From Escherichia coli (GTDB lineage Bacteria > Pseudomonadota > Gammaproteobacteria > Enterobacterales > Enterobacteriaceae), in NCBI RefSeq assembly GCF_003334255.1, contig NZ_QOWU01000012.1: a DNA stretch of 64,000 bases; one strand, 5' to 3'. The position numbers and the translations under genes are program-made. How positions within the stretch are numbered: position 1 is the stretch's first letter; every line of letters starts with the position of its first letter. Below the pieces are notes generated by a model that was given only the letters and a program-made list of their open reading frames with translations, was not told the DNA's origin and made no database searches. Shown one piece after another: positions 8,959-57,241 of this stretch.

Positions 8959-10320
8959 TTAATATGCGCGCAGCGTCTGGAAAACCGAGGCCAAAAGACG
9001 TGCGTCTTTGATGCCCGGTTGCGACTCTACAGCAGAATTAAAATCAAGTCCGGCGCAGCCGGTTTGTGCCGCTTCCACGCAGTTATCTGCGCCTAAGCCC
9101 CCCGCCAGCAGAACGTTGCCAAGCGATTGACCATTTAATAGTGACCAGTCAAAACGTTGCCCGCTTCCACCCTGGCCGTTGTCTAAAACATATTTATCAA
9201 CGTGCTGAAACTCGCGGGCGGGCAGGGTTTCACCGACGCTTAATGCTTTCCAGATGGCAACATGTGCTGGCAGAGCTTCACGCAGCGTATCGATATACAG
9301 CTGTTCTTCATTACCATGCAGTTGCACTGCCGCCAGCGATAACACCTTAGCTTTGTCCACCACATCGGCAATATCGTGATTGCGGAACACGCCAACATAC
9401 TGCAACGGTGCCGCAGCCATCACTTCCTGCGCCTGTTCAACGTTGACGCAACGCGGTGATGTCGCAACAAAAATCAACCCACCGTAAATCGCGCCCGCGT
9501 CATAAGCTGCTTTAGCATCTTGCCCACGCGTCAGGCCACATACTTTATTCTCACCCAGCAACACCCGGCGCACGGCGGCGTGCAAATCGTCATGGGCCAT
9601 CAACGCCGAACCAATCAGAAAACCGTTAGCGAAGTGGCTTAACTCGCGCACCTGAGCGTAAGTATTGATGCCGGATTCGCTGATTACCGTCACGTTGTGC
9701 CCCAGTTTCGGCGCAAGCTCGCGGGTACGGTTGAGATCAATCGACAAATCACGCAGATCGCGGTTGTTGATGCCAACGACCTTTGCTCCCAATGCAATGG
9801 CGCGCTCCTGTTCCTCTTCATTACTGACTTCGGTCAGCACCCCCATCTCCAGACTGTGAGCGACGGCGGCAAGCTGGCGATATTGGTCGTCATCCAGTAC
9901 TGAAAGCATTAATAAGCAGGCATCGGCCTGGTAATAGCGCGCCAGATAGATCTGGTAAGGGTCGATAATGAAGTCTTTACATAAAATCGGCTGCGGGGCG
10001 ATTTGGCTGACGATGGGGAGGAAATTAAAGCTCCCCTGAAAATATTTCTCATCAGTCAGCACCGAAATTGCCGAAGCGTAATGTTTATAAATGGCGGCAA
10101 TGCGTGCTGGATCGAAATCATCACGGATCACGCCTTTTGACGGCGACGCTTTCTTGCACTCCAGAATAAACGCCGTGCGCGCACCCTGTAGCGCATCATA
10201 AAAATGTCGCGTGCTCGGCTGAACCTCATTCTGAAAACTGGCCAGCGGTTGCTGCTGTTTGCGGGCTTCTACCCAAATCGCCTTGTCTGCGACGATTTTC
10301 GCTAAAACGGTTTGCATCAT
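8959..10320 (-). CDS. trpC: Bifunctional indole-3-glycerol-phosphate synthase / phosphoribosylanthranilate isomerase (453 aa)
   Basis: 453-aa ORF between trpD and trpB, the length expected for fused TrpC(F). Confidence 0.95.
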
Positions 10321-11916
10321 TTACCCTCGTGCCGCCAGTGCGGTGACTCTGTCGTAAGCGGAACCACTGCGCAGTACCTCAAGAACGGTTTGCGCATTGG
10401 CTTGCAGATCTTCATGGCCATGCAGGCGCATTAACATGGCGACGTTCGCAGCGACGGCTGCTTCATGGGCGGCGTCGCCTTTACCTTGTAACAAACGTGT
10501 TAAAATGTCACGGTTTTCTTCCGGTGTTCCGCCTGCCAGTTGCTCCTGGTGGTAGGGTGTCAGGCCAAAGTCTTCTGCGGTGAGCTGATAGCTTTTAATT
10601 TCGCCGTCATGCAGTTCGGCAACGATTGTCGGCGCGTGTAATGAAACTTCATCCATCCCGCCGCTGTGCACCACCGCCGCGCGTTGATACCCCAGCACGC
10701 GCAAGGTTTCGGCAATCGGCAGCACCAGTTCCGGACTATAAACACCAATTAACGCCAGCGGCGGATGCGCCGGGTTAATCAATGGCCCCAGCACATTGAA
10801 CAGGGTGCGGGTTTTCAGTTGCTGGCGAACCGGCATCGCGTGGCGGAATCCGGTGTGATACTTCGGCGCAAAGAGGAAACATACACCTAACTCATCCAGC
10901 GCCTGGCGCGATTTATCGGCGTTCATATCAAGATTAATACCGAACGCCGCCAGCAGATCGGACGAACCAGATTTACTGGAGACGCTACGGTTGCCGTGTT
11001 TCGCCACTTTCAGCCCACAGGCCGCGGCGACAAACGCACTGGCGGTAGAAATATTGATACTGTTGCTGCCGTCACCGCCAGTACCGACGATATCAGCAAA
11101 CAGATAATCCGGGCGCGGGAACGGCGCTGCGTTTTCCAGTAGCGCGGTTGCTGCCCCGGCGATCTCGTTCGGGTGCTCACCGCGAATTTTCATGCTCACC
11201 AGCGCCGCCGCCAGTTGTTCCGGCTTCAGCTCGCCACGCACCACCGCTGAAAACAGCTGGTGGCTTTCTTGTTGGCTAAGCGTCTGCGCCTGATACAGTT
11301 TTTCCAGAATCGGTTGCAGCGTGTTGGCTGGCTCTAGTTTCTGCTGCGCCCAGGCCAGCGTTTGTTCCAGCAGGCGAGCGCCCTGGGTGGTGAGAATGGA
11401 TTCCGGATGGAACTGGAATCCACAAACGCGATCCGCATCGTGACGTACTGCCATCACCATGCCATTAAAATGGGCGTTGATGGTTAAACCGGCCGGAATG
11501 TTACTGCCAACCAGCGAGTGATAACGCGCCACCGGCAGCGGGTTTGTTAATCCGGCAAACATCGCCTGACCGTCATGTTCAATGCTGGAGGCTTTACCGT
11601 GGAGAATTTCGCCCGCCTGACCGACATAGCCCCCGTAAGCTTCGACAATCGCCTGATGTCCGAGGCAAATGCCAATAATGGGCAGCTTGCCACGCAAGCG
11701 GGTGAGGAGTTCCGGCATACAACCGGCTTCGCTCGGCACACCGGGGCCAGGAGAAAGCATCAGCACCGGATTGCTCATGGTCGCCAGGCGTTCAATTAAG
11801 GTTTGCGCCGGAATATGGTTGCGGTAAATCACCACGTTATGCCCATTGCTGCGCAACTGATCTGCCAGGTTGTACGTAAAAGAGTCGATATTATCGAGCA
11901 GCAGAATGTCAGCCAT
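10321..11916 (-). CDS. trpD: Anthranilate synthase component II (glutamine amidotransferase) fused to anthranilate phosphoribosyltransferase (531 aa)
   Basis: N-terminal GATase catalytic motif GICLGHQ; 531 aa; start overlaps the trpE stop. Confidence 0.95.
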
Positions 11917-13478
11917 CAGAAAGTCTCCTGTGCATGATGCGCGGTGGCAATAGCGCGCAGTACAGCGCGGGCTTTGTTACGGGTTTCGTCGGCTTCCGAC
12001 TGCGGAACAGAATCAAGGACTACACCAGCACCCGCTTGCACGGTGGCGATACCGTTTTCCACCAGCGCCGAGCGGATCACAATGCAGGTGTCGAGATCGC
12101 CATGCGCGGTGAAATAACCTACCGCGCCGCCGTAGCTGCCGCGGCGGCGACCTTCCGCCTCGGCAATTAACTGCATAGCGCGTACTTTCGGCGCACCGCT
12201 TAACGTCCCCATATTCATACAGGCGCGATAAGCGTGCAGGGCGTCAAGATCGTGACGCAGTTCGCCGACTACGCGAGAGACGAGGTGCATCACATAGGAA
12301 TAACGGTCAACTTTGGTGAGATCGGCGACGTAGCGGCTGCCGGGGGTGCAAATGCGTGCCAGATCATTACGGGCGAGATCAACCAGCATCAGATGTTCAG
12401 ACAGCTCTTTATGATCGGTACGCATTTCCAGTTCAATACGGCTGTCGAGATCTCTGTCCAGTGAACCATCGGCGCGACGACCGCGTGGGCGTGTTCCGGC
12501 AATCGGGTAGATCTCAATCTGGCGGCTGGTGGCATCATACTTGAGCGAGCTTTCCGGCGACGCGCCAAATAGGGTGAAATCATTATCCTGCATAAAAAAC
12601 ATGTACGGGCTGGGATTACTCTTTTTCAGCACGTAATAGGCCGCCAGCGGTGACGGGCAGGGCAGAGAGAAACGGCGAGATGGCACCACCTGGAAAATTT
12701 CTCCAGCGCGAATCGCTTTTTGCAACAAACGCACTACGCCACCGAACTCTTCATCGCTCTGATTACATTCACAACGCATATGCGGCACGGAAACCACTGG
12801 CAGCGGCGGCGCGGCTTCGGTCAGTTGCTGACGTAGTTCGTTCAGGCGAGCAGTGAGACGTTGTTTTTCTTCTTCATTCGGAGCAAACAGGCTGGCCTGA
12901 ATACGGGTGCTTTTTTTCTGATGGTCAATCACCATCAGCGTTTCAGCGAGATAAAAACAGAAATCAGGGCAGTTATTTTCCGCTGACAGTTGCGGTAAAT
13001 CTTCAAATCCCGCCACAAGGTCATAAGAGAACAGGCCGCCGAAGAACATGGCTTCTCGTTCTTCCTTCGGTACATTCAACAGATTCTGCAATAAACGGAA
13101 AGCGTCAAAAACCGAAAGGGAGCATAAGCGGGCGTCTTCATCCAGCAGTGGACTGACAGGGGGGAAGCGCAGCACACGGCAGTTTGGTGATTGTTCACTT
13201 TCCACACCCGCAGGCAGGGCGTTATCCAGTAGTGCCAGCAGGGCTTCGCCGTTGCCGGAAAGTGCCTGGATTGTGACAGTGTCACCTAAAGCTGTAATGC
13301 GCAGCGCACTGTCTACCAGCAGCAGGCTTTTTAAATCATCTTTGCTGTCGATATCTGCGGATTCCAGCAGCAGCGTTGCCGGACGATCCCCACACAACTG
13401 GTGAAAAAGCGCGGTGGGATTGTCGCGATAAGCGCCTTCGCAGGTTAGCAGTTCGAGAGTCGGTTTTTGTGTTTGCAT
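11916..13478 (-). CDS. trpE: Anthranilate synthase component I (520 aa)
   Basis: 520 aa starting [25 protein letters not shown]; first structural gene after the trp leader. Confidence 0.97.
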
Positions 13479-13499
13479 TGTTATTCTCTAATTTTGTTC

Positions 13500-13527
13500 A
13501 AAAAAAAGCCCGCTCATTAGGCGGGCT
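13500..13527 (-). terminator. trp attenuator (3:4 terminator hairpin with U-tract)
   Basis: Minus strand reads AGCCCGCCTAATGAGCGGGCTTTTTTTT between trpL and trpE. Confidence 0.9.
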
Positions 13528-13569
13528 GGGTATCTGATTGCTTTACGCATGGTGAATACACTGCCCGTT

Positions 13570-13614
13570 TCAGGAAGTGCGCCACCAACCTTTCAGTACG
13601 AAAATTGCTTTCAT
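13570..13614 (-). CDS. trpL: trp leader peptide, 14 aa, with tandem Trp codons
   Basis: Minus strand ATGAAAGCAATTTTCGTACTGAAAGGTTGGTGGCGCACTTCCTGA encodes [14 protein letters not shown]. Confidence 0.95.
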
Positions 13615-13640
13615 TGTCGATACCCTTTTTACGTGAACTT

Positions 13641-13680
13641 GCGTACTAGTTAACTAGTTCGATGATTAATTGTCAACAGC
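13641..13680 (-). promoter_or_regulatory. trp promoter with overlapping TrpR operator
   Basis: Minus strand TTGACA (13671-13676), 17-bp spacer, TTAACT (13648-13653); operator palindrome ACTAGTTAACTAGT across the -10. Confidence 0.9.
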
Positions 13681-13751
13681 TCATTTCAGAATATTTGCCA
13701 GAACCGTTATGATGTCGGCGCAAAAAACATTATCCAGAACGGGAGTGCGCC

Positions 13752-14633
13752 TTGAGCGACACGAATTATGCAGTGATTTACGACCTGCACAGCCATACCA
13801 CAGCTTCCGATGGCTGCCTGACGCCAGAAGCATTGGTGCACCGTGCAGTCGAGATGCGCGTCGGCACCCTGGCGATCACCGACCATGACACCACAGCTGC
13901 AATCGCGCCAGCAAGAGAGGAAATTTCACGTTCGGGACTGGCGTTGAATCTTATTCCCGGCGTGGAAATTTCCACGGTCTGGGAAAATCATGAAATTCAT
14001 ATTGTCGGGCTGAATATTGATATTACTCATCCGCTAATGTGTGAGTTCCTCGCGCAGCAGACAGAACGGCGCAATCAGCGGGCGCAGCTGATTGCCGAAA
14101 GACTTGAAAAAGCGCAAATACCTGGGGCGCTGGAAGGCGCACAACGACTGGCGCAGGGCGGCGCAGTGACGCGCGGTCATTTTGCGCGTTTCCTTGTTGA
14201 GTGCGGCAAAGCCAGTTCAATGGCGGATGTCTTTAAAAAGTATCTGGCGCGCGGGAAAACCGGATACGTTCCGCCACAGTGGTGTACAATAGAACAAGCT
14301 ATTGATGTCATTCATCATTCTGGCGGTAAGGCGGTGCTAGCTCATCCTGGGCGGTACAATCTTAGTGCTAAATGGCTGAAAAGATTGGTTGCGCATTTTG
14401 CCGAACACCACGGTGACGCGATGGAAGTCGCGCAGTGCCAGCAATCGCCCAATGAACGTACCCAGCTGGCGGCCCTTGCGCGTCAGCATCATTTATGGGC
14501 ATCACAAGGATCTGATTTTCATCAGCCATGCCCGTGGATCGAACTGGGTCGTAAACTCTGGCTGCCCGCAGGCGTTGAAGGCGTCTGGCAGCTATGGGAA
14601 CAGCCGCAGAACACCACAGAGAGGGAATTATGA
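13752..14633 (+). CDS. yciV: PHP-domain phosphoesterase (293 aa)
   Basis: N-terminal HSHTTASDG metal-binding motif typical of PHP domains; 293 aa. Confidence 0.85.
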   Translation: MSDTNYAVIYDLHSHTTASDGCLTPEALVHRAVEMRVGTLAITDHDTTAAIAPAREEISRSGLALNLIPGVEISTVWENHEIHIVGLNIDITHPLMCEFLAQQTERRNQRAQLIAERLEKAQIPGALEGAQRLAQGGAVTRGHFARFLVECGKASSMADVFKKYLARGKTGYVPPQWCTIEQAIDVIHHSGGKAVLAHPGRYNLSAKWLKRLVAHFAEHHGDAMEVAQCQQSPNERTQLAALARQHHLWASQGSDFHQPCPWIELGRKLWLPAGVEGVWQLWEQPQNTTEREL

Positions 14634-25990: not shown

Positions 25991-26362
25991 TTATCATCAT
26001 TCTTATTACCCATTTTTAATGAATTAAAGGGCTTTTAATACACCGCAGCAATAACAGCTTGAGTTATCTCAACACAAAATAATAACCGTTAAGGGTGTAG
26101 CCTATGATCAACACAAATATGAAATATTGGTCCTGGATGGGCGCGTTTTCTCTGTCGATGCTCTTCTGGGCCGAACTCCTCTGGATCATTACTCACTGAT
26201 CCTTGACCCCGCTGCGGCGGGGTTGTCATTTGCTTTGCCACAAGGTTTCTCCTCTTTTATCAATTTGGGTTGTTATCAAATCGTTACGCGATGTTTGTGT
26301 TATCTTTAATATTCACCCTGAAGAGAATCAGGGCTTCGCAACCCTGTCATTAAGGAGGAGCT

Positions 26363-41714: not shown

Positions 41715-41775
41715 TGCGGCAGGGGGGGCGCTTTTCCCCTCACCCTAACCCTCTCCCCAGAGGGGCGAGGGGACC
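41715..41775. repeat. GC-rich imperfect palindromic intergenic repeat
   Basis: cccctcaccctaaccctctcccc / aggggcgagggg inverted symmetry; G7 homopolymer at 41722-41728. Confidence 0.5.
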
Positions 41776-42186
41776 GTATTGTGCAAATATTGTTACCCCA
41801 GCAACAAACAGGCTCATACAGCCCCTAACCCTTTCATGGCGATGGCTGGGACGGTTCAGACCTTGCCGAATATTCTCCAGCACCGTCTCCTCATTACAAT
41901 CAATCTCGTTATTCCAGAAACGCAGCACGGTCCAGCCCTGCGACTCAAGCCAGCTAGTGCGCCTGGAATCATAGGCAACTGCTAAATCATGCTGCCCACC
42001 ATCCAGCTCAACGACTACACGCGCCGAGCAGCAAGCAAAATCGAGAATGTAGCTCCCCACTGGATGTTGACGGCGAAATTTGAAATCACTAAAACGTCGG
42101 CTGCGAAGATATCGCCAGAGCTTTCGTTCCTGCAAAGTGAGATTGCGTCTTAAATCACGCGCATTTGATTTAATTTTATCTATCAC
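41740..42186 (-). CDS. ycjD: DUF559 (very-short-patch-repair-like endonuclease fold) protein YcjD, ORF reads 148 aa here
   Basis: DUF559-like N-terminal 110 aa (LWRYLR...FKFRRQ...ELDGGQH...VLRFWNNE); C-terminal 30 aa run into the palindromic repeat. Confidence 0.65.
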   Translation of the reverse strand: MIDKIKSNARDLRRNLTLQERKLWRYLRSRRFSDFKFRRQHPVGSYILDFACCSARVVVELDGGQHDLAVAYDSRRTSWLESQGWTVLRFWNNEIDCNEETVLENIRQGLNRPSHRHERVRGCMSLFVAGVTIFAQYGPLAPLGRGLG

Positions 42187-55975: not shown

Positions 55976-57241
55976 ATGAGCAACAATGAATTCCATCAGC
56001 GTCGTCTTTCTGCCACTCCGCGCGGGGTTGGCGTGATGTGTAACTTCTTCGCCCAGTCGGCTGAAAACGCCACGCTGAAGGATGTTGAGGGCAACGAGTA
56101 CATCGATTTCGCCGCAGGCATTGCGGTGCTGAATACCGGACATCGCCACCCTGATCTGGTCGCGGCGGTGGAGCAGCAACTGCAACAGTTTACCCACACC
56201 GCGTATCAGATTGTGCCGTATGAAAGCTACGTCACCCTGGCGGAGAAAATCAACGCCCTTGCCCCGGTGAGCGGGCAGGCCAAAACCGCGTTCTTCACCA
56301 CCGGTGCGGAAGCGGTGGAAAACGCGGTGAAAATTGCTCGCGCCCATACCGGACGCCCTGGCGTGATTGCGTTTAGCGGCGGCTTTCACGGTCGTACGTA
56401 TATGACCATGGCGCTGACCGGAAAAGTTGCGCCGTACAAAATCGGCTTCGGCCCGTTCCCTGGTTCGGTGTATCACGTACCTTATCCGTCAGATTTACAC
56501 GGCATTTCAACACAGGACTCCCTCGACGCCATCGAACGCTTGTTTAAATCAGACATCGAAGCGAAGCAGGTGGCGGCGATTATTTTCGAACCGGTGCAGG
56601 GCGAGGGCGGTTTCAACGTTGCGCCAAAAGAGCTGGTTGCCGCTATTCGCCGCCTGTGCGACGAGCACGGTATTGTGATGATTGCTGATGAAGTGCAAAG
56701 CGGCTTTGCGCGTACCGGTAAGCTGTTTGCCATGGATCATTACGCCGATAAGCCGGATTTAATGACGATGGCGAAAAGCCTCGCGGGCGGGATGCCGCTT
56801 TCGGGCGTGGTCGGTAACGCGAATATTATGGACGCACCCGCGCCGGGCGGGCTTGGCGGCACCTACGCCGGTAACCCGCTGGCGGTGGCTGCCGCGCACG
56901 CGGTGCTCAACATTATCGACAAAGAATCACTCTGCGAACGCGCGAATCAACTGGGACAGCGTCTGACAAACACGCTGATTGATGCCAAAGAAAGCGTTCC
57001 GGCCATCGCGGCGGTACGCGGTCTGGGGTCTATGATTGCGGCAGAGTTTAACGATCCGCAAACGGGCGAGCCGTCAGCGGCGATTGCACAGAAAATCCAG
57101 CAACGCGCGCTGGCGCAGGGGCTGCTCCTGCTGACCTGTGGCGCATACGGCAACGTGATTCGCTTCCTGTATCCGCTGACCATCCCGGATGCGCAATTCG
57201 ATGCGGCAATGAAAATTTTGCAGGATGCGCTGAGCGATTAA
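55976..57241 (+). CDS. puuE: 4-aminobutyrate aminotransferase, class III PLP enzyme (421 aa)
   Basis: Class-III aminotransferase architecture; 421 aa. Confidence 0.9.
   Translation: MSNNEFHQRRLSATPRGVGVMCNFFAQSAENATLKDVEGNEYIDFAAGIAVLNTGHRHPDLVAAVEQQLQQFTHTAYQIVPYESYVTLAEKINALAPVSGQAKTAFFTTGAEAVENAVKIARAHTGRPGVIAFSGGFHGRTYMTMALTGKVAPYKIGFGPFPGSVYHVPYPSDLHGISTQDSLDAIERLFKSDIEAKQVAAIIFEPVQGEGGFNVAPKELVAAIRRLCDEHGIVMIADEVQSGFARTGKLFAMDHYADKPDLMTMAKSLAGGMPLSGVVGNANIMDAPAPGGLGGTYAGNPLAVAAAHAVLNIIDKESLCERANQLGQRLTNTLIDAKESVPAIAAVRGLGSMIAAEFNDPQTGEPSAAIAQKIQQRALAQGLLLLTCGAYGNVIRFLYPLTIPDAQFDAAMKILQDALSD

Follow-up and report, generated by a model that had tools for sequence, protein, structure and literature searches.

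A K-12-identical trp promoter, operator, leader and attenuator in a 64-kb window of the Escherichia coli chromosome

The stretch of DNA analysed here (the window) comprises 64,000 nucleotides of contig NZ_QOWU01000012.1 from the Escherichia coli assembly GCF_003334255.1, and it carries on its minus strand what is almost certainly (probability about 0.98) the native E. coli control region of trpEDCBA, working by repression together with transcription attenuation. Ribosome-mediated attenuation of transcription, together with repression at an operator, has its type example in the trp operon. All of the control elements are present, intact and exactly identical to those of E. coli K-12, and the leader RNA has the capacity to form three mutually exclusive hairpins. 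The elements lie within 13500-13680 and every one of them is on the minus strand; the reverse complement of this interval reads as a trp leader and the plus strand does not. An earlier note on this DNA had placed them in the same interval without naming a strand, and its range holds for the elements themselves and not for the whole leader, which runs about 21-22 nt beyond 13500 to the trpE ATG at 13478 (+163). The order on the minus strand is GAGCTG, TTGACA, ATTAATCATCGAACTAG, TTAACT, AGTACGC and AAGTTCACGTAAAAAGGGTATCGACA, then the ATG of trpL and, further on beyond trpL, AGCCCGCCTAATGAGCGGGC and TTTTTTTT.

The promoter named in the earlier note (TTGACA/TTAACT) was recovered as exact string matches on the minus strand, with the -35 hexamer TTGACA, the same as in K-12, at 13676..13671 and the -10 hexamer TTAACT at 13653..13648, separated by a 17-bp spacer. 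TTGACA-N17-TTAACT has a single occurrence in the 64-kb window and none in 100 dinucleotide-preserving shuffles, and TTAACT is taken to be the -10 element from what is established about the trp promoter of K-12. A generic sigma-70 scan of the window did not list the trp promoter, because the scan rule needs an A at position 2 of the -10 hexamer, where TTAACT has a T; the miss is a limit of the scan and no evidence against the promoter. A separate sigma-70-like site, TTCAGA-17-TATGAT, is present on the plus strand at 13685-13713. It stands back to back with the trp -35, the divergent gene rnm (trpH/yciV; TTG start at 13752) lies downstream of it, and it may be the rnm promoter.

The TrpR operator palindrome, which the earlier note had also reported, is CGAACTAGTTAACTAGTACG at 13661..13642 on the minus strand, a near-palindrome in which direct computation found 18 of 20 positions to be self-complementary. 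Its two CTAG motifs are 4 bp apart and it contains the -10 hexamer (13653..13648), which is the arrangement of a TrpR-repressed sigma-70 promoter. The operator pattern GNACTAGTTAACTAGTNC is found once in the 64-kb window and never in 100 dinucleotide-preserving shuffles, and the operator is unchanged in an alignment of six diverse E. coli strains. Transcription would start at the A of AAGUUCACG (13640, minus strand), 7 nt after the -10, a +1 position that we take from the literature on K-12 mapping. The trpR gene is absent from the 64-kb window; in K-12 it maps far from trp, elsewhere on the chromosome.

Downstream of the promoter, trpL reads ATG AAA GCA ATT TTC GTA CTG AAA GGT TGG TGG CGC ACT TCC TGA on the minus strand (13614..13570), an ORF of 14 codons and a stop that was matched as exact strings, is identical to K-12 b1265 and is annotated under the same name in other genomes. 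The 14-aa leader with tandem Trp codons that had been described is thus borne out, with UGG UGG at 13587..13582 (+54-59), AAGGG upstream of the AUG as ribosome-binding site and an in-frame stop directly ahead of segment 2. In transcript numbering, the trpL AUG is at +27, UGA at +69-71, the terminator at +114-134 and the trpE AUG at +163, giving a leader of 162 nt; these are the textbook values for K-12. The terminator scan found the stem-loop on the minus strand at 13527..13507, with seven pairs in the stem, six of them G-C, followed by T8 (U8 in the RNA, to +141) down to 13500, and this GC-rich intrinsic terminator with its U-tract stands before the first structural gene; the earlier note had listed the terminator hairpin with U-tract. 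The Trp_leader model of Rfam (RF00513) aligns over its full length (positions 1-100 of 100) with 13593..13500 on the minus strand, and the score of 93.1 bits (E = 1.1e-18) exceeds the gathering score of 41. Both helices of that model (1:2 and the terminator) are formed in the window sequence; the model starts within the leader ORF and excludes the promoter, the operator and the start of trpL.

Folding with ViennaRNA yielded the 1:2, 2:3 and 3:4 hairpins of the textbook model, in line with the check that the earlier note had proposed. Hairpin 1:2 (pause/anti-antiterminator; 13550..13587, minus strand), in which +54-70 pairs with +74-91, has a free energy of -17.5 kcal/mol in isolation (+50..+95) and is part of the minimum free energy (MFE) structure both of the free leader and of a +1..+92 snapshot. 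Hairpin 2:3 (antiterminator; 13522..13567, minus strand), in which +74-86 pairs with +107-119, is the MFE structure (-15.6 kcal/mol) when segment 1 is masked, as by a ribosome stalled on UGG, and the transcript ends at +122. Hairpin 3:4 (intrinsic terminator/attenuator; 13500..13527, minus strand) pairs +114-121 with +126-134, ahead of U8 to +141; it has -14.0 kcal/mol alone, is covered by the Rfam alignment and is the sole hairpin formed when segment 2 is masked, as by a ribosome at the stop codon. Hairpins 2:3 and 3:4 are mutually exclusive because both use +114-119, and the four segments together form the 1:2, 2:3 and 3:4 alternatives. Free +1..+141 RNA folds as 1:2 plus 3:4 at -46.9 kcal/mol (z = -3.7), and none of 200 shuffles was as stable.

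The antiterminator was obtained from co-transcriptional snapshots and not from equilibrium folding of the whole +1..+141 RNA. In the complete +1..+141 RNA with segment 1 masked, equilibrium still favours the terminator (-20.3 vs -15.6 kcal/mol) and no antiterminator forms; antitermination must hence be decided kinetically, as the accepted attenuation model has it. In the full-leader MFE structure, GGGUAUC in the trpL ribosome-binding region (+16-22; 13619-13625, minus strand) pairs with GAUACCC (+107-113; 13528-13534, minus strand), enclosing hairpin 1:2. In the folding model, this pairing would sequester the trpL Shine-Dalgarno region once the transcript is complete. Shine-Dalgarno pairing of this kind has been proposed to restrict leader translation to one round.

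Read by established knowledge of K-12, the control region would act at two levels. In repression, a tryptophan-bound TrpR dimer would bind the palindromic operator overlapping the -10 and RNA polymerase would be excluded from the promoter. In attenuation, polymerase that does initiate would make the 162-nt leader and would be expected to pause after hairpin 1:2 until a ribosome begins trpL. When charged tRNA-Trp is scarce, the ribosome would stall at the two UGG codons and cover segment 1, leaving segment 2 to form the antiterminator with segment 3 while segment 4 has yet to be made, and transcription would enter trpE. When tRNA-Trp is plentiful, the ribosome would reach UGA and cover segment 2, segment 3 would pair with segment 4, and hairpin 3:4 with its U-tract would cause termination near +140. 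TrpR binding, the transcription start, pausing, ribosome coupling and the point of termination are all presumed here to follow K-12 and, on the 100% identity with K-12, termination in vivo is likely to be tryptophan-dependent and coupled to leader translation. The his, phe, thr, leu and ilv leaders share this logic, in that each combines a short ORF rich in the regulatory codon with alternative hairpins and an intrinsic terminator. The trp leader differs from these attenuators in having only two regulatory codons and, in addition, a repressor at an operator that overlaps the promoter.

The terminated leader (+1 to about +140) may itself have a function, and the chances are about even that it is mainly the trans-acting small RNA rnTrpL, which would base-pair, assisted by Hfq, with dnaA and other mRNAs, the locus then being a dual-function sRNA gene with the peptide as a second product. 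The 140-nt E. coli rnTrpL is reported to be Hfq-dependent, to destabilise dnaA mRNA, to repress sanA and to activate mhpC (PMC12612679, a 2025 review that cites Li et al. 2021, RNA Biol 18:1324). The leader in the window is identical to that of K-12, and hence the abilities of the K-12 RNA would apply here. With rnTrpL described in E. coli and Sinorhizobium meliloti, sequence identity makes the terminated 140-nt leader of this locus the E. coli rnTrpL molecule (PMC12612679). Its role is already published and adds to attenuation without replacing it, the dnaA, sanA and mhpC genes lie outside the window, and the trans-acting role is probably best regarded as an extra function and not as a different element. 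Repression and attenuation of trpEDCBA are retained as the primary reading of the locus.

Comparison with other genomes gives the same picture. From inside trpE to inside rnm, the 320 bases at 13440-13760 are 100% identical to K-12 MG1655 (NC_000913.3), with no difference in the promoter, the operator, the leader ORF or any of the four pairing segments. The description of the region as essentially the textbook E. coli sequence was accordingly well founded, and the alignment that the earlier note had suggested revealed no mismatch in the leader ORF or terminator stem. The b1265 region of K-12 MG1655 (NC_000913.3, about 1322968-1323144) has the same bases and is oriented alike with respect to trpE and to the divergent gene rnm (trpH/yciV). 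The differences from K-12 that lie nearest are two SNPs within trpE (12147 and 13239), both silent. The control region was found in 5422 of 5426 complete E. coli genomes (421-base query, at least 95% identity), and the annotation in matched E. coli genomes gives trpL, "Trp leader region", trpE and rnm. Five strains spaced evenly along the identity ranking were aligned, and their few substitutions are confined to the trpE and rnm coding sequences, a single spacer position in the promoter and two positions in the loop of the terminator; none of these strains has a change in the hexamers, the operator, the leader ORF or any stem position.

The operon that follows the control region is complete. 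On the minus strand are trpE (11916-13478, 520 aa), trpD (10321-11916, 531 aa), trpC (8959-10320, 453 aa), trpB (7754-8947, 397 aa) and trpA (6948-7754, 268 aa); the encoded TrpE, D, C, B and A proteins are identical to those of K-12 and their genes have no internal stops. Directly 3' of trpA is a GC-rich hairpin with a T-run, which we take to be the putative trp t terminator. When the whole window was compared with K-12 1300001-1400000 by local BLAST, positions 5072-64000 proved to be collinear with K-12 1314540-1373574. Identity over this part is about 99.9%, with 35 substitutions, and one 106-bp indel is its sole structural difference. The gene order, ompW', yciE, yciF, yciG, trpABCDE, trpL, rnm, yciO and onward, is that of K-12, and in both collinearity and gene content this part of the window is unrearranged core chromosome, which upholds the use of the trp region as an anchor in the earlier note.

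Several further features were observed in the collinear part. Substitution at 6088 changes residue 72 of YciF from R in K-12 to H here, the only amino-acid difference among yciE, yciF, yciG, trpA-E, trpL and rnm. The segment missing relative to K-12 (106 bp; K-12 1351359-1351464) is flanked there by the direct repeat ATTCTCCAGCACCGTCTCC, and the junction in the window is at about 41890, within 41740-42186; as a consequence of its absence, the ycjD ORF has 148 aa vs 117 aa in K-12 and its C-terminus differs after ...EETVLENI. Nine substitutions vs K-12 are concentrated in 87 nt (56956-57042) of the 3' part of puuE, with a background elsewhere of about one SNP per 2-3 kb, and by its pattern this cluster looks like a small recombination patch. 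An Rfam match to the enterobacterial sRNA STnc180 (198 bits, gathering score 50) is located at 26031-26233 on the plus strand, in the cysB-acnA interval, and overlaps the place that the small ORF ymiC has in K-12.

At the other end of the collinear region, the earlier note had the core chromosome continuing unrearranged right up to an accessory segment. The collinearity holds; the control region does not itself adjoin that segment, since the junction is 8.4 kb from the attenuator and 1.9 kb beyond trpA, within ompW. Between the junction and the trp control region are the 3' ompW remnant, yciE, yciF, yciG and trpABCDE. The accessory DNA, window positions 1-5071, has no counterpart in K-12 1300001-1400000 and matches GenBank AF151091.1 (prophage P-EibA, from E. 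coli ECOR-9) at 99.9% identity. Judged by its bases, it is identified as the right arm of a P-EibA-type lambdoid prophage, and it carries on the plus strand (330-4337) the eaaA ORF for an S6/SPATE-like autotransporter of 1335 aa, named "S6 family peptidase" in RefSeq genomes. Prophage and host meet at 5071/5072, where the last 119 nt of ompW (5072-5190) remain. In another genome with the same arrangement, the remnant bears the annotation of a partial OmpW pseudogene, and lambdoid tail genes (J, lom and tail fibre) stand before it. Among 5426 complete E. coli genomes, just 48 have at least 80% of window 1-5190 covered. The ompW gene presumably formerly bore the name yciD. The known insertion sites of Stx phages include yciD according to one article (PMC8065619); a literature search on P-EibA, ECOR-9 and ompW yielded indirect citations only, namely this listing and the reference to Sandt et al. 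(2002).

Two rival readings concern the nearness of this prophage. The ompW prophage could influence how the far end of trp-yciGFE is expressed or terminated, or its excision could mobilise the adjacent trp genes, and this is considered very improbable. Transducing phages of phi80 and lambda are known to mobilise trp genes. Even if the ompW prophage affects distal trp-yciGFE, the control region would stay canonical. That the region is a chance or decayed look-alike, such as a pseudo-leader left by rearrangement beside the prophage and controlling no working trp operon, was raised solely for the prophage arm 8.4 kb away, found no support and is rejected as having a negligible likelihood, against 0 differences from K-12 in 320 nt, an intact trpEDCBA with K-12-identical proteins, K-12 collinearity from 5072 to 64000 and promoter and operator patterns that appear in 0 of 100 shuffles. 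The native trpEDCBA control region, acting by repression and attenuation, is the reading that stands, with nothing of substance speaking against it.

The trp control region is already known and nothing about it is novel, as the earlier note had also said; its sequence is the K-12 sequence and it teaches nothing new on trp regulation. Its value is that of a landmark, which places the window in the 28-min region of an E. coli chromosome that closely resembles that of K-12, shows the trp operon and its control to be untouched, and delimits the accessory DNA to window positions 1-5071.
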